A stretch of 64,000 nt of DNA from an uncultured Methanomassiliicoccales archaeon (GCA_963695345.1 OY968769.1:1504001-1568000); one strand, 5' to 3'. Positions 28,635 through 55,216 are shown, counted from the first letter of the stretch. Numbers and translations: made by a program. The notes: generated by a model not told the origin, from the sequence alone.

Positions 28635-28909
28635 TGATTGACCTGGCCTTAATTGTATATTCTTGATGATATATTGTGAGTTCGGTGACCGAGGTTTGAG
28701 GCGTCACACCACCGTTCCTGCATGTTTTTTTAGGCGGCTACTATCAAAGCGCTGTTGACACAGAATGTCGAATGAAGTGAGCTGCTTGGACATTTGTGAC
28801 CCTGAAACTATTGATATATTTATTACAGTCAGATTCGAATTATTTACGATATTTCATAGTGGATGATGTTATATATTATAGCCTGCATCGAATCTTTAAG
28901 GTGAATCGA

Positions 28910-30206
28910 ATGACAATGTACTGTAACCAATGCCAGCAGACCGCCAAGGGTGTGGCCTGCACGGTCAAAGGGGTATGCGGGAAGGACGAGGACATGGAGA
29001 GCCTCCAGGAGCTGCTTATCTATGGATTGAAGGGGATAGCAGCCTATGCCTACCACTGCCGGATCCTCGGATACAAGGACGAGGAGGTCGACGCCTTCAT
29101 GCACGAAGCCCTCTTCAAGACCCTCACCAATGTCGATTTCTCGCTTGAGGACATGTGGAACACGGTGCTCAAGGCGGGTATGATGAACTTCAGGATCATG
29201 CAGTTGCTGGACAAGGCGAACACAGACCATTTCGGCCTCCCCACACCAGTGACCGTCAAGCACCGGAACCGTGAAAGGCCCGGGTATCCTGGTCACCGGA
29301 CACGACCTTCTCGACCTGGAAGAGCTCCTTGAACAGACCCAGGGTACGGGAGTGAACGTCTACACCCACGGCGAGATGCTGCCGGCGCACGGGTATCCAG
29401 CTCTCCGCAAATACACGAACCTGATCGGCAACTATGGATCGGCCTGGCAGAAACAGAAGACGGAATTCGCCGAGTTCGGCGGCCCCATACTGACCACCAC
29501 CAACTGCGTCCTGATCCCTCCAGAGTCGTACAAGGACCGGCTCTACACGACCGGGATCACCGCGGTGGAGGGAGTGAAGCACATCGCCGACCGGAAGGAT
29601 TTCTCTCAGATCATCGAGCACGCCAAGAGGATCGGGGACCTTCCAGAACGCCCGGGAACGACCCTCTCGACCGGATTCCACCACAAGGCGGTGCTAGGAC
29701 TGGCCCCACAGATCGTGGACGCGGTAAAGGCAGGTAAGATCAAGCACTTCTTCCTGATCGGTGGATGCGACGGAGCGACCCCGGGCAGGAACTACTACTC
29801 GGAGATGGCGGACAAGGTGCCACAGGACAGCGTCATCATGACGCTCGCCTGCGGCAAGTACCGTTTCAACGACCGGAAGTTCGGTGCGATCGACGGCATC
29901 CCCCGTTACCTGGATATCGGGCAGTGCAACGACACCTACTCGGCGGTGGTGTTGGCCGTCGAACTGTCGAAGGCGTTCAACGTGTCCGTGAACGAGCTGC
30001 CGCTGAGCATCGTCCTCTCATGGTTCGAGCAGAAGGCGGTGGCCATCGTCCTGACCTTGCTGGCACTGGGCATCAAGAACGTGCGGGTCGGTCCGACCCT
30101 GCCGGCCTTCGTCTCCCCCAACAACTGGAAGATGATCCAGGAGAAGTATGGGTGGAAGGCGATCGGGGATGTCGACGAGGACCTGAAGGACATGTTGTCC
30201 GGGTGA
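28910..30206 (+). pseudogene. hcp: Hybrid cluster protein (short class III form) with a +1 frameshift at about 29258 (possibly a sequencing error)
   Basis: CxxCx8Cx5C N-terminus, GHDL, THGEMLPAH, TTNC, GGCDG, CGKYRF, GQCND, SWFEQKA; deleting one A at 29258-59 yields a 431-aa intact ORF. Confidence 0.85.
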
Positions 30207-30327: not shown

Positions 30328-32022
30328 ATGGTCGACATACTGCCCCTGGCAATGCTCGTTCTTGGTCTGACCATCATCGATGCCACATTGGCCTGTGCCG
30401 CCTTCATGAGGAGCCGGAGGCACTACCGGTATTCCTTCGTAGCCCTAATGGCCATGGAGATCGTCATGGCCTGGGGATATCTTCTGGACGTCAACGCTTC
30501 CGATATTTCAGAGAAGCTGTTCTGGAACAATCTGGAGTACATCGGGTTCCTTGGAGCTGTCCCAGTCTCGCTCATATTCTCGCTTCGCTTCATCGGGAGC
30601 AGATGGATGACACCGAAGAGGACCATGGTGCTCTTGATCGTCCCCCTCGCATTCTTGATCTCATTGGTCACGAACCAGTTCCACCATTTGTGGTACGTCG
30701 ATGTCACGATCTCAAACAACCATTTCATATCGTTCTCGGCCCACTACGGCCCCATCTTCTTTGCCTATGTGGCATTCACCCTGGCGGTGGTCAGCGCGGC
30801 GGTCGTCATACTAATGCGTCGCTACTGCCACACGGTAGGGCAGCACCGAAAACATGTGGGGACTGTGATGCTGGCGACCATGATCCCCCTGGCGGCCACC
30901 ATCCTCAACTTCGTAGAGGTCACGCACATACCCGGTCCATTCCTGGTTCTGGCCGGTCTTTTCGTCAGTGGGATCCTCCTATATGTTGGCGCGTTCGGGT
31001 TCGAGATGTTCGAGATCGTGCCCTTCGCCTTCGACAAGGTTGTGGGGACCATCAATGACAGCGTGTTCGTGCTCGATGAGGGCGATGCGATTCTGTTCAT
31101 GAACAACAGCGCCGTTGCACTGATCGGGAAAAGGAACGAGGAAGCGTTTCACTGTAGAATAGGCGACGTCCTCCCGGGAGGGGAACCCATCTCGACGGCT
31201 ATCACCAAAGGCGAATCGGACTGCTGTTTCGAAATGGTTCCAGGACAATTCTATCATGCCTCAGTTACCGAGATCAAGGATCCGGGACAGAGGGCGGTGG
31301 GCAAGCTTGTAGTCCTTCATGATATTACCAAGGAAAAAAGGGCCAGCGATCTGGTAAAAGAGGCAGAGGACAAGACCGATCTGCTAAACTCCATCACCAG
31401 ACACGATATCAATAACCAGCTGCTGGTAATCGAAGGCAACGCAGAACTGTTGCGCCTCAGATCGAGTGACGAGTCAATCAAGAAGAACCTTGCCTTGATC
31501 GTTTCCGCCTCCAAGAACATCTCCCAACAGTTGGCCTTCCTCAGGGACTACCAGGCCATCGGCGTCAAGGACCCCTCATGGCAGAACATAGGATCAATGG
31601 CCCTGCAGGTGCCTCTTCCGCTTTCCGAGCGGGGAGTGGTAATGGAAACCGATGTCCGGAACGCTGAGATACTGGCAGATCCTCAGTTGGAAAAGGTGTT
31701 TTACAACCTGGTGGACAACTCCCTGACCCACGGCGAGGGCGTTACCCATATCAAGATATCGCTAAAAGAAATGACCGATTTCGCAGAACTGGTCTATCAG
31801 GATGACGGTCCAGGCATCTCTCCAGATGCCAGAAAGCATCTATTCGAGATGAGCGAGGACGGAGAACATGGGGCCGGGCTATTCCTTTCCAAGAAGATCC
31901 TGGCCATTACTGGCATGACCATAACCGAGGAAGGCGAACCCGGCAAGGGCGTGAGGTTTGTGATCCGGGTCAGCCGGAACAAGGTGCGATTTGTGCAGCA
32001 TGGGGCCAGCGTCGTTCATTGA
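30328..32022 (+). CDS. Sensor histidine kinase with N-terminal 7TM domain and PAS-like domain
   Basis: TN-x-x-HHLW 7TM motif, RHDINNQL H-box, NLVDNS N-box, DDGPGI, GAGLFL. Confidence 0.9.
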   Translation: MVDILPLAMLVLGLTIIDATLACAAFMRSRRHYRYSFVALMAMEIVMAWGYLLDVNASDISEKLFWNNLEYIGFLGAVPVSLIFSLRFIGSRWMTPKRTMVLLIVPLAFLISLVTNQFHHLWYVDVTISNNHFISFSAHYGPIFFAYVAFTLAVVSAAVVILMRRYCHTVGQHRKHVGTVMLATMIPLAATILNFVEVTHIPGPFLVLAGLFVSGILLYVGAFGFEMFEIVPFAFDKVVGTINDSVFVLDEGDAILFMNNSAVALIGKRNEEAFHCRIGDVLPGGEPISTAITKGESDCCFEMVPGQFYHASVTEIKDPGQRAVGKLVVLHDITKEKRASDLVKEAEDKTDLLNSITRHDINNQLLVIEGNAELLRLRSSDESIKKNLALIVSASKNISQQLAFLRDYQAIGVKDPSWQNIGSMALQVPLPLSERGVVMETDVRNAEILADPQLEKVFYNLVDNSLTHGEGVTHIKISLKEMTDFAELVYQDDGPGISPDARKHLFEMSEDGEHGAGLFLSKKILAITGMTITEEGEPGKGVRFVIRVSRNKVRFVQHGASVVH

Positions 32023-32513
32023 CCCGTCTTATTTCGGCGTTGCAGGAACCTGCTGAAGTCCTCCTCTTTGAGCCGGACCACCCGCCACTCCTGCAATATC
32101 CGGGCCCCGGTGCTCTCATAGAAGCTGATGGCATCAGAGTTCCAATCCAGGACGTTCCACTCCATCCTGCCGCATCCTCTTCTTTCCGCCTCGGCCACGC
32201 AGAACTCGAGCAGTGCGCTGCCTACTCCGTGCCTGCGATAACTGTCGATGACAAATATGTCCTCCAGGAACAGCGTAGGTCTTGCCAGGAATGTGGAATA
32301 GGTGAAATAGTAGCAGGCATAGCCTGCCGGAACCCCCTCCATCATGGCGATATGGGCCACCAGATAAGGGTGTTCAGAGCCAATGTCCTGTTTCAATCTG
32401 GAGATCGCTTCATCTGTAGGAGGCTCCAGGTGCTCATATCTAGCCAGTTCCTTGATCAGGTCCGCGAGCGTGTCGGCATTCTGTGCATCCACTCTTACAA
32501 TAGAGATTTCCAT
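32016..32513 (-). CDS. GNAT acetyltransferase (diamine/SSAT-like)
   Basis: ELARYE, YSTF...LFLEDIFV, YRRHGVG, MEWNVLDWN-x-x-AI-x-FY. Confidence 0.9.
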   Translation of the reverse strand: MEISIVRVDAQNADTLADLIKELARYEHLEPPTDEAISRLKQDIGSEHPYLVAHIAMMEGVPAGYACYYFTYSTFLARPTLFLEDIFVIDSYRRHGVGSALLEFCVAEAERRGCGRMEWNVLDWNSDAISFYESTGARILQEWRVVRLKEEDFSRFLQRRNKTGQ

Positions 32514-32607
32514 TCTGAAGCCCCGGTCTTGGTGACCGAATCAAATCGAAATATTAAAAACAGGAAGTAACAAGGCATGCTCACGATGGGCAGGCCTTGA
32601 TAAGATG

Positions 32608-32645
32608 TTTCCTGAATCAACAGACTATTCTGATTAATCAGAATA
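32608..32645. promoter_or_regulatory. Candidate operator of the hgc operon: perfect 20-bp palindrome plus degenerate adjacent copy
   Basis: TATTCTGATTAATCAGAATA at 32626-32645; TTTCCTGAATCAACAGACTA at 32608-32627 (14/20 identical). Confidence 0.65.
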
Positions 32646-32681
32646 AACAAATACTTGGATCCCTTCTGATGTTCGACGAAC

Positions 32682-32945
32682 ATGAAAGCGAGACCAGGTT
32701 CCTGCAAGCCAGATTCAGCATGTGAGGAATACCACGTGGAGTCCATCGTCAGTATCGATGAAAGAGGTCAGATGGTCCTGCCCAAGGACATCAGGGAAAA
32801 GGCCGGGATCAAGGCAGGGGACAAGCTGGCACTGGTCACTCTGGAGAAGAACGGCAAGATCTGCTGTATCCATATCATGAAGGCGAACGAACTGGCCGCA
32901 AAGGCCAAAGAAGTGGCTACCGAAAACACCGCGCATCTGAGATGA
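32682..32945 (+). CDS. hgcC: AbrB/MazE/SpoVT-family DNA-binding protein, HgcAB-associated (HgcC-like)
   Basis: SIDERGQMVLPKDIREKAGIKAGDKL AbrB signature, Cys residues including a CC pair; 4 nt upstream of hgcA. Confidence 0.75.
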   Translation: MKARPGSCKPDSACEEYHVESIVSIDERGQMVLPKDIREKAGIKAGDKLALVTLEKNGKICCIHIMKANELAAKAKEVATENTAHLR

Positions 32946-32949
32946 TCAA

Positions 32950-33930
32950 ATGACCGATATCATGCTCACGGACTACAGCTTGAACAAGAAGGACAAGAGA
33001 GACCATTTGGCTGCGAGGTTGGGCTATCGTCGTTCCTCCCATTTGGTAAAGCCAGGACTATACGCCATTGGCAGTCCGGGTCCTGGATCCCCGGTGTTCG
33101 TCACCGCCAATTACACCCTCAGCTTCGATGCCCTCCGAACGTCGATCAGAGGCATCGATGGCTATATCCTGGTACTGGACACCAAAGGGATCAACGTCTG
33201 GTGTGCGGCCGGAAAAGGCACTTTCGGCACTGCCGAGGTCATCAGACGGGTCCAGGAAACGGAACTGGAAAAGGTGGTCACCCACCGGAGGCTGATCTTG
33301 CCCCAGTTGGGCGCCCCCGGCGTTTCAGCGCATGAGGTGCAGAAGCAGACGGGCTTCAAGGTGGACTATGGGCCAGTGCGCGCCTCAGACCTTCCCCGTT
33401 ATCTGGAAAAAGGACCGGACGCGGAGATGCGCAAGGTGAAGTTCCCATTGAAGGACCGGATCGTCCTTATCCCGGTGGAGATAGTTCATTCGATGATCAT
33501 CATGGCGGTCGCCGCTCTGGTGCTGTACTTGATGGGGGGGCTGATACCTGCCTTAATGGCCATAACCGTGGTACTATCCGGAACGGTCCTTTTCCCGATA
33601 CTCCTTCCTTTGATACCGACCAGGGACTTCAGTTCGAAGGGGATAGTGCTGGGAGTGTTGGTGTCGCTGCCGTTCATCGCCAACACGATCCTGAACCGAG
33701 GTTCGGACCCTTATTGGATCACCGCCCTGTTCGTGGCGGCCGATGCGTTGCTGATATCGCCTGGGGTCGGCTACCTGGCGCTGAACTTCACCGGTTCATC
33801 GACCTTCGCGTCGCGGACCGGGGTCAAGCGGGAGATATTCCGCTACATACCGATAATGGTGGCAATGTTCATTATCGGAGGAGCACTATTCGCTGTTGCT
33901 GCCTTATCGTCCTTTGCGGGGTGGAATTGA
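32950..33930 (+). CDS. hgcA: Mercury methylation corrinoid protein HgcA
   Basis: Cap-helix motif GINVWCAAGKGTFG, VTANY, ILPQLGAPGV, C-terminal TM domain. Confidence 0.96.
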   Translation: MTDIMLTDYSLNKKDKRDHLAARLGYRRSSHLVKPGLYAIGSPGPGSPVFVTANYTLSFDALRTSIRGIDGYILVLDTKGINVWCAAGKGTFGTAEVIRRVQETELEKVVTHRRLILPQLGAPGVSAHEVQKQTGFKVDYGPVRASDLPRYLEKGPDAEMRKVKFPLKDRIVLIPVEIVHSMIIMAVAALVLYLMGGLIPALMAITVVLSGTVLFPILLPLIPTRDFSSKGIVLGVLVSLPFIANTILNRGSDPYWITALFVAADALLISPGVGYLALNFTGSSTFASRTGVKREIFRYIPIMVAMFIIGGALFAVAALSSFAGWN

Positions 33931-34247
33931 TGGAAGGAAACCTGTTGGTCCAAACCAATAACCAGATAGATGTGAGGAAGGCCCGTAACACGTTGATGCT
34001 CATGCCCCATCGCTGTTCCGGATGCGGAAGGTGCGTCGAGGTCTGCCCGCACGGAGTCTTCGAGATCCAGAACCGGAAGGCCAAAATGGTCAATGCCGAT
34101 GACTGCATGGAGTGTGGTGCCTGCCAGGTCAACTGCGCAAGCGGGGCCATTAAGGTTGAGAGCGGTGTTGGCTGCGCCAAGGCGATGATACAGGCGGCTC
34201 TCACCGGAAAGGAGGTCTCGTGCGGCGGACCCGGTGGCTGTTGCTGA
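33930..34247 (+). CDS. hgcB: Mercury methylation ferredoxin HgcB
   Basis: Two CxxCxxCxxxC motifs including CMECGAC, GVGCA, C-terminal CC; TGATG overlap with hgcA. Confidence 0.95.
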   Translation: MEGNLLVQTNNQIDVRKARNTLMLMPHRCSGCGRCVEVCPHGVFEIQNRKAKMVNADDCMECGACQVNCASGAIKVESGVGCAKAMIQAALTGKEVSCGGPGGCC

Positions 34248-54812: not shown

Positions 54813-55216
54813 CCCACCTATGAAATATCGACAGGCTTGAAATAATTTTGCAGGATATTTAAAAAACTGACCACATCAGAATACTCTGAGGCACGAATCA
54901 ATGGATCAACAATCTGACAGTTGTCGTTAATCGCTTCTACTCAGTAATTTGATTTTCAAAAAATATGCTTGATATAAACCGACTCCTTTTCTAAAACCTC
55001 TTTCTGATGAGCAGCACCCGGCCGGCACCATTAGAACGGCGACATGCCTCAAACCATCAGAACAGGTGTATTGCCAGGTATGACAAAGAATATGCAGGAT
55101 CGGGATAAGAATGAGGCAGCCCATACTTGAAACGGCTAAGTCCATTTTTCATCCCTCCACGACCGAGAGGATTCCAGCGAAGAATTATACCTTGTAGGAT
55201 ACAATGATGCACTCAC

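Follow-up and report, generated by a model that had tools for sequence, protein, structure and literature searches.

A conserved palindromic TCWGA array upstream of hgcC-hgcA-hgcB in a Methanomassiliicoccales archaeon as a candidate operator of the AbrB-type protein HgcC

Results

A perfect palindrome lies in a phased pentamer array in front of hgcC-hgcA-hgcB

The window analysed here, by which we mean the whole stretch of 64,000 nucleotides from an uncultured Methanomassiliicoccales archaeon (GCA_963695345.1, OY968769.1:1504001-1568000), carries the mercury-methylation genes hgcA and hgcB behind a small AbrB-type gene, hgcC, and a perfect 20-bp palindrome upstream of hgcC is the candidate operator studied in this work. 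A sequence-only reading of the window had pointed to this palindrome before the AbrB-type gene that heads hgcA-hgcB, to a degenerate copy preceding it and to a TTCTGAT half-site near 32664. All three elements were located: the palindrome at 32626-32645, the copy at 32608-32627, where 14 of 20 positions match and 2 nt overlap with the palindrome, and the half-site at 32664-32670. The features of the locus, numbered from the first letter of the window, are the following.

32611-32624, no strand: auxiliary degenerate pair, CCTGA (32611-32615) and ACAGA (32620-32624), each matching at 4 of 5 positions and in 9-bp register with the core
32626-32645, no strand: candidate core operator, the perfect 20-bp palindrome TATTCTGATTAATCAGAATA, with two 10-nt arms and zero spacer
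32648-32653, plus strand: TATA-box-like hexamer CAAATA, about 5 nt past the proximal pentamers and 28 nt before the ATG
32665-32669, no strand: third exact pentamer, TCTGA, 27 nt (3 x 9) past TCAGA, between the TATA-like box and the start codon
32682-32945, plus strand: hgcC, encoding an 87-aa AbrB/SpoVT swapped-hairpin-type protein with Cys8, Cys14 and Cys61-Cys62, the presumed repressor
32950-33930, plus strand: hgcA, encoding the corrinoid protein of mercury methylation (NF040863, 414.9 bits against a cut-off of 275)
33930-34247, plus strand: hgcB, encoding a ferredoxin with two [4Fe-4S] clusters and a C-terminal Cys-Cys (NF040864, 112.2 bits against a cut-off of 99)

The three genes are closely packed, with a 4-nt gap between the hgcC stop and the hgcA start, and with the hgcB ATG overlapping the hgcA stop by 1 nt. 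Within the palindrome, which ends 36 nt before the hgcC ATG at 32682, the core pentamers TCTGA (32629-32633) and TCAGA (32638-32642) enclose a 4-nt A/T spacer. All five pentamers, starting at 32611, 32620, 32629, 32638 and 32665, fall into one 9-bp register. When the flanks were shuffled 20,000 times, both upstream slots matched at 4 or more of 5 positions in a fraction of 0.001 of the shuffles, and an exact pentamer occupied one of the four downstream slots in a fraction of 0.024. The CCTGA of the auxiliary pair is retained in the closest relative (L003) and not in the remaining loci of the same genus, so that support for this pair is weak. With up to 3 mismatches allowed, the palindrome has no second match in the window, nor did any of 100 shuffles contain one, and the 16-nt palindrome core at up to 2 mismatches occurs a single time in the 2.56-Mb genome.

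The motif is conserved upstream of hgcC within the family

Relatives of the locus were searched for in 40 genomes, 24 from the same Methanomassiliicoccales family as the window and 16 from other families of the order. The HgcC protein was found in 21 of the 24 same-family genomes, and the 16 genomes of the other families yielded no comparable match and one weak match (E 1.7e-4). In all 21 same-family loci hgcA lies 3' of hgcC, and hgcB follows in every one except L009, where the locus ends; in the three same-family genomes without hgcC, HgcA above cut-off was likewise not found. At the level of the class, a true HgcA was detected in 2 of 151 genomes, both of family f1.

Absence of the motif from orthologous promoters would have spoken against the sequence-only reading, and the motif turned out to be present: by eye it is seen in 19 of the 20 other same-family loci with a usable upstream region. 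These 20 regions cannot otherwise be aligned across genera, and almost all of them contain TTCTGA-N4-TCAGAATA followed by (A/T)T(A/C)(C/T)AAATA, 22-29 nt ahead of the start codon.

The palindrome lies inside a 168-bp divergent intergenic region that hgcC shares with an acetyltransferase gene, which has the following features.

32016-32513, minus strand: divergent GNAT acetyltransferase gene (PF00583), a neighbour outside the hgcC cassette
32549-32560, minus strand: TATA-like element of the GNAT gene, within the conserved stretch 32547-32567 (CGAAATATTAAAAACAGGAAG), conserved in the genus (L003-L008), about 35 nt upstream of the GNAT start and about 66 nt from the palindrome

The stretch CGAAATATTAAAAACAGGAAG is probably the TATA box and promoter of the GNAT gene. 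A GNAT gene beside hgcC is limited to two genera (g1 and g2). Of the 20 same-family loci, 12 have no GNAT match, and the motif is retained in these, also where the upstream gene is co-directional (L014, L017 and L018), which assigns the site to the promoter of hgcC rather than to that of GNAT. A site that served only the divergent GNAT gene, the other outcome that would have told against the sequence-only reading, is thus not what is observed.

The motif is shared by archaea and bacteria and precedes two kinds of cargo genes

For a wider set we took the best 80 of 208 relatives of HgcC from species-representative genomes, which include Methanoregula, Methanospirillum, Methanothrix, Thermoplasmata, Syntrophales, Aminicenantes, Chloroflexota, Nitrospirota, Actinomycetota and Spirochaetota. 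Two of the loci from metagenome-assembled genomes bear the labels Methanospirillum hungatei (L085) and Methanomassiliicoccus sp. (L096). Among these best 80 relatives, hgcC is followed by hgcA and hgcB in 32 loci and by arsM, the gene for arsenite methyltransferase, on the same strand in 40, within 250 nt in 38 of those 40; three arsM examples scored 346-362 bits with NF008823 against a cut-off of 263. Five of the remaining 8 loci are cut by a contig end and the others carry something else. The palindrome had been proposed as an archaeal mercury-methylation operator, and as regards its place at the head of hgcAB this holds; the description is too narrow, many of the hosts being bacteria and arsM being at least as frequent a cargo.

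In the 101 loci fetched with the HgcC query (L003-L023 and L026-L105), hgcC is the first gene. Removal of 5 duplicates and of 1 locus with too little upstream sequence left 95 non-identical upstream regions, and 63 of these have an exact TCWGA-N4-TCWGA pair at most 120 nt upstream of hgcC, compared with a mean of 0.135 loci and a maximum of 1 in 200 dinucleotide shuffles of the upstream regions, and with 4 pairs in the 399,972 nt that make up the rest of the same loci. Either the exact pair or a three-unit CWGA pattern is found in 73 of the 95 loci, against 0.16 in shuffles. Start-to-start distances between pentamers are 9 (73 times), 18 (43 times), 27 (16 times) or 36 (11 times), and 143 of 147 are thus in register and 4 are off. 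The 73 sites from the 63 loci give the consensus A-W-T-W-W-TCTGA-TTWW-TCAGA-A-W-A, in which each spacer position is A or T in 69-72 of the 73 sites, and of which the palindrome in the window is a perfect instance. Loci of both domains, archaea and bacteria, have the motif in promoters that are unrelated in other respects.

The motif follows hgcC and not hgcAB

The motif was found upstream of hgcC in 41 of 48 loci with hgcAB and in 32 of 47 loci in which hgcC precedes other cargo, mostly arsM. Syntrophales served as a control: of 151 genomes sampled, 69 have HgcA, and 29 of the 30 loci fetched have no hgcC upstream. Within 700 nt upstream of hgcA, none of these 29 loci contains either strict pattern, which indicates that the motif follows the AbrB-type gene and not hgcAB. 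The hgcC-less Syntrophales loci usually carry, upstream of hgcA, a gene of about 159 aa with the sequence RCCxQDxxFCE (L148:830-1309 and about 20 more among L149-L177), and in L163 the gene upstream of hgcA carries a CC motif. From their translations we take the RCCxQDxxFCE protein to be MarR-like and the L163 protein to be ArsR-like; together with HgcC, genes of three unrelated folds of vicinal-cysteine regulators would then head hgcAB.

One genome of the Syntrophaceae (G189) has two cassettes, hgcC-arsM (L141) and hgcC-hgcAB (L144), each behind a TTGACA promoter and a TCWGA array, so that cross-regulation of arsenic and mercury methylation is possible there. As a separate observation, a Syntrophales locus (L175:3192-3374) has an hgcC-like stretch with 52% identity downstream of hgcA and hgcB.

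The array overlaps the predicted core promoter in both domains

In most archaeal loci a hexamer of the type (T/C/A)AAATA lies about 10 nt after the proximal pentamer, and the two proximal pentamers stop about 5 nt before this TATA-like hexamer. An in-phase pentamer past the TATA-like box is found in the window, in L008, L009, L012 and L017, and in the Methanothrix loci. By the known geometry of archaeal promoters, on which both the TATA call and the start-site estimate are based, CAAATA at 32648-32653 would be the TATA box, and transcription would start at about 32676-32678 to give a near-leaderless mRNA. The pentamers would then occupy the side of the B recognition element (BRE) and the stretch from the TATA box to the start site. 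In the bacterial loci the array follows TTGACA and lies either ahead of the -10 box or immediately past it. Both layouts look like those of a repressor that would occlude the core promoter. As in autoregulation of the ArsR/SmtB type, hgcC is the first gene and the array is located at the core promoter predicted from sequence.

A reading of the palindrome at the RNA level, for which an 8-bp hairpin in a transcript could be drawn (z = -2.63 for the 101-nt stretch), was rejected because the archaeal palindromes sit upstream of the TATA-like box and because nothing relevant was found in Rfam, a scan of which returned one sub-threshold RNase P match inside hgcA.

HgcC is an AbrB-fold protein with an invariant vicinal cysteine pair

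The protein encoded by hgcC in the window belongs to the NCBIfam family HgcC (NF040962; 107.1 bits against a cut-off of 70, E 2.9e-31, with residues 17-78 on profile positions 2-63 of 70), and it is encoded beside hgcA and hgcB, as the family is described. The family name, HgcAB-associated, is too narrow, because 40 of the best 80 of 208 relatives precede arsM. The swapped-hairpin domain was recovered with PF04014 (37.3 bits against 24.7) and TIGR01439 (42.1 against 28.3); in a comparison with Pfam at E <= 0.01, PF04014 was the only match, and the winged-helix family PF01022 was not matched. The family is of modest size, with 360 of 1.84 billion representatives matching at E <= 1e-10.

A profile of 94 members matched the solved structures of SpoVT (2ro5, E 2.6e-5), archaeal AbrB (5itj and 2l66) and bacterial AbrB. 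The AlphaFold2 model has a mean pLDDT (predicted local distance difference test) of 76.7, with values of about 90 for residues 21-70, and has helices at 35-41 and, C-terminally, at 68-84, on either side of a hairpin at 49-67; the Cys-Cys pair lies in the last strand of the domain. In a Foldseek search with the model, ranks 1-19 were all AbrB, SpoVT, MazE, Sso7c4 or C68-type proteins, with target-normalised TM-scores up to 0.77, probabilities up to 1.00 and, the domain being small, E-values of only 0.05-1; the predicted fold is that of the AbrB group. The predicted complex of two HgcC copies scored 0.41 against a mark of 0.42 and is given no weight in either direction. The two-fold symmetry of the palindrome is compatible with binding by a homodimer.

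In the 94 sequences the residues D26, R28, G29, Q30, P34, K35, R38, L49, A50, C61 and C62 are invariant, the pair C61 and C62 thus being present in 94 of 94. At least two N-terminal cysteines are found in 85 of the 94 members, and an N-terminal vicinal pair in 43 of 46 members not associated with hgcAB and in 25 of 48 that are. As an observation apart, a 430-aa open reading frame (ORF) at a contig start (L094:81-1373) resembles HgcC, including the Cys-Cys, in its first 60 or so residues and looks unrelated in the rest; it probably arose by chimeric assembly or by gene fusion.

Further sites and neighbouring genes

The only other site of the genome in the full AT-rich form, TTCTGAATATTCAGATAAAG, lies outside the window at G000:C1:1179553, and no ORF of at least 90 aa starts within about 300 nt of it. 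No arsM orthologue was found in the genome of the window, the best tblastn identities being 29-31%, to generic methyltransferases. At 54876-54889, in an AT-rich intergenic region, the window contains TCAGAATACTCTGA, a pair of pentamers with the opposite (divergent) orientation; it is flanked by a minus-strand ORF of 454 aa and by a membrane-protein ORF of 318 aa, and is compatible with chance.

A sensor histidine kinase of 564 aa is encoded at 30328-32022 on the plus strand, with an N-terminal seven-transmembrane region (PF16927), a PAS domain and a HATPase domain. Its gene ends 6 nt inside the 3' end of the convergent GNAT gene, and no tie to the hgc unit was seen. Further upstream, at 28910-30206 on the plus strand, one gene is apparently broken into the overlapping ORFs 28796-29332 and 29271-30206, with a one-base frame change at about 29255-29275 that suggests a frameshift, a pseudogene or an assembly error; from its translation we take this gene to encode a protein like the hybrid cluster protein.

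Discussion

The interpretation of the palindrome as an operator is supported by its conservation across two domains, by the 9-bp register and by its linkage to the AbrB-type gene. We consider it probable that HgcC is a cysteine-sensing autorepressor of hgcC-hgcA-hgcB that binds the palindrome as its core operator. The co-occurrence of gene and site points to HgcC as the binding protein; that it represses, and which effector it would answer to, we infer from the sequences. HgcC dimers would recognise TCWGA pentamers spaced 9 bp start to start, with the perfect pair at 32629 and 32638 as the primary site, and more dimers would be drawn in by the weaker pentamers of the same phase (32611, 32620 and 32665). 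Bound HgcC would cover the BRE side of the 32648-32653 box and the stretch from the box to the start site, the TATA-binding protein (TBP), transcription factor B (TFB) and RNA polymerase would be kept off, and hgcC-hgcA-hgcB would be repressed, hgcC itself included. Derepression would probably follow from the action of As(III) and/or Hg(II) on Cys61-Cys62 and the N-terminal cysteines, or possibly from oxidation of these thiols.

The invariant Cys-Cys pair suggests the sensing of a thiophilic metal or metalloid, and a metal or redox response is a well-motivated reading of this pair, the N-terminal cysteines and the cargo genes taken together. As(III) and/or Hg(II) would be the most likely effector, because the alternative cargoes are arsenic and mercury methylation systems, because the other regulators at hgcA also carry vicinal cysteines, and because the one hgcAB regulator that has been tested, an ArsR-like protein, responds to arsenic according to the available text of its description. 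More tentatively, HgcC may be the founding member of a structural class of AbrB-fold metal(loid)-sensing repressors that would sense As(III) and/or Hg(II) through an invariant vicinal cysteine pair, bind TCWGA at a 9-bp period, act on both archaeal and bacterial transcription machineries and place hgcAB and arsM under one signal; we regard this wider proposal as plausible without holding it to be the likelier outcome.

The gene itself has been described. Zhang et al. (2023, ISME Commun 3:74, PMC10349881) reported in their main text a prlF/mazE/abrB-like gene upstream of hgcA as a putative regulator of archaeal hgcAB, and found it in confirmed methylators (8 genomes, 6 of archaea and 2 of bacteria) and on 14 metagenomic contigs. 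The position directly upstream of hgcA given there for the gene, which corresponds to HgcC of NF040962, is that of the protein in the window. That main text frames the gene in terms of toxin-antitoxin systems, and no palindrome, promoter, operator or binding site is mentioned in it; a later article (PMC13362967) refers to the gene, in its available text, solely by citing that work. Our searches, which excluded subscription journals and supplementary files, returned no paper on the operator, on HgcC by name or on an AbrB-type regulator of arsM. The gene thus has a published description and a name; what appears to be unpublished is the cis element with its register, the invariant cysteine pair and the link to arsM.

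With AbrB, SpoVT, MazE and Sso7c4 proteins, HgcC shares the domain, as judged by hidden Markov models, by sequence comparison with solved structures and by the predicted fold. MazE and AbrB sit behind a repeat or a palindrome in their own promoters, and HgcC does likewise. HgcC differs from AbrB, SpoVT and MazE in its vicinal cysteine pair, its cysteine-rich N-terminal tails and its single C-terminal helix; it has no toxin partner, unlike MazE, and no GAF domain of the SpoVT type. The binding sites of AbrB are loosely defined, in contrast to the site proposed for HgcC, TCWGA at a 9-bp period, which is well defined. MraZ, the AbrB-fold repressor of the dcw cluster, also heads its own operon and binds a regular array of pentamer repeats that overlaps the promoter; it differs from HgcC in its two fused domains and in its repeat, and is not known to have a cysteine motif. 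HgcC resembles MraZ weakly (20.6 bits against a cut-off of 162) and is not a member of that family. In Pseudodesulfovibrio mercurii ND132, an arsenic-responsive, ArsR-like regulator is co-transcribed with hgcAB and controls it, according to the available text of the report (Gionfriddo et al., bioRxiv 10.1101/2022.10.17.512643). As with hgcC, its gene heads hgcAB, and the product is a small cysteine-bearing, presumed repressor with an arsenic connection; its fold is a winged helix, unlike that of HgcC, which would be an analogue and not a relative. HgcC may work like an ArsR without being one.

Several results weigh against these interpretations. The 2.56-Mb genome contains 3 perfect palindromes with arms of at least 10 nt, where about 2.4 are expected (2.56e6 x 0.25^10), and for the bare TCWGA-N4-TCWGA core the count is 9, with 7.1 predicted by base composition. 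Among these 9 places, the AT-rich spacer, the flanks and the promoter position come together only at the hgcC site. Since neither perfect palindromy nor the bare core exceeds chance in the genome, the case for an operator rests on position and conservation, and the argument depends wholly on comparative data from related loci that are not independent of each other. Both strict patterns fail in 22 of the 95 loci; most of these have degenerate in-phase arrays by eye, L014 has half a site only, and in the upstream region of L048 no array was seen by eye. Start codons of the 80 fetched loci were picked heuristically, and distances to the ATG are therefore approximate. The sole hgcC-positive control locus (L156) also fails the strict patterns, having two exact pentamers 18 nt apart directly after a TTGACA/TATAAT promoter. 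With regard to the protein, N-terminal cysteines in the clade of the window number 1-2 in the genus, 1 in L004-L007 and 0 in L009 and L012, so that a three-cysteine As(III) site is not universal. The HgcC tree, in which 49 of 90 inner branches are open, is too poorly resolved to fix the number of cargo switches, which comes to 9 by parsimony and to 1 when only those forced by well-supported branches are counted. The effector could equally be the redox state, an Fe-S cluster or a metabolite such as S-adenosylhomocysteine (SAH).

This last point leads to a reading in which HgcC is the autorepressor and its cysteines respond to the redox state, to an inter-subunit Fe-S cluster or Zn, or to an SAH-like metabolite of the methyl cycle. 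Redox sensing is common in anaerobes, and all the hosts are of that kind; each of the two cargoes is a methyltransferase system; among the cysteines invariance is limited to the Cys-Cys pair, some members having no N-terminal cysteine; and the ArsR-like regulator of ND132 responds to SAH besides arsenic, as stated in the available text of that report. We nevertheless hold an effector of this kind to be unlikely, if still to be reckoned with, since beyond methyl transfer the two cargoes share only a thiophilic metal(loid) substrate, the ArsR-like and the MarR-like (RCCxQDxxFCE) regulators at hgcA also have vicinal cysteines, and a domain of about 50 residues with one helix offers, in the model, no obvious pocket for a small molecule. 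It is less probable again that the TCWGA array is bound by another factor, with HgcC in an accessory role, for example as a chaperone that would hand its metal(loid) substrate to HgcAB or ArsM. The Cys-Cys in the tail of HgcB and at the N-termini of ArsM proteins would be compatible with such a thiol-to-thiol transfer. A separate binding factor would have to be common to archaea and a dozen bacterial phyla, though, whereas hgcC is the only gene common to all loci that bear the motif, the 29 loci without hgcC do not have it, and HgcC has a DNA-binding transcription factor fold, in which the part that aligns with SpoVT and AbrB contains invariant Arg and Lys.

A site that mainly serves the divergent GNAT gene, or an operator shared by GNAT and hgcC in both directions, was suggested by the placement of the palindrome in the divergent region and by the presence of a GNAT neighbour in two genera; we find this very improbable, given that the motif is kept in same-family loci, in bacteria and in other archaea where there is no GNAT, and that GNAT has its own conserved TATA-like element at some distance. 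The name of the Pfam domain, MazE_antitoxin, and the designation of the gene as toxin-antitoxin-associated prlF/mazE in the main text of Zhang et al. (2023; PMC10349881) favour yet another view, that HgcC is a type II antitoxin (PrlF/MazE) and the palindrome a toxin-antitoxin operator with conditional cooperativity. This view fails because there is no toxin gene, and we see very little room for it: 4 nt separate hgcC from hgcA, hgcAB or arsM makes up the cargo in 72 of the best 80 of 208 relatives, GNAT is divergent and not conserved with hgcC, and antitoxin models score far under their cut-offs (TA_MazE_antitoxin_Deino 16.1 against 65, doc_partner 18.7 against 55.9). Finally, the chance-level counts of palindromes and cores in the genome would fit a fortuitous sequence in an AT-rich archaeal promoter with no operator function, which is hardly credible in view of the cross-domain conservation, the strict 9-bp register and the linkage to hgcC.

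An autorepressor HgcC acting at the TCWGA array, the reading that we favour, bears on a question of wider interest. Control of hgcAB expression is an acknowledged gap in the prediction of methylmercury formation, in the available texts of PMC10349881 and bioRxiv 10.1101/2022.10.17.512643, and only one hgcAB regulator has been tested so far, the ArsR-like protein in one bacterium. The present analysis supplies a cis element, a candidate trans factor and a consensus for the archaeal and many of the bacterial hgcAB operons, and the control of hgcAB in methanogens thereby becomes directly testable. The presence of arsM under the same cassette gives independent genomic support to the regulatory link that has been proposed between mercury methylation and arsenic, and an AbrB-fold metalloregulator working in both domains would be of interest for the design of biosensors. 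If the wider proposal of a class of repressors that sense As(III) and/or Hg(II) is true, the capacity to form methylmercury would, in many methanogens and syntrophs, be switched on by exposure to arsenite or mercury.

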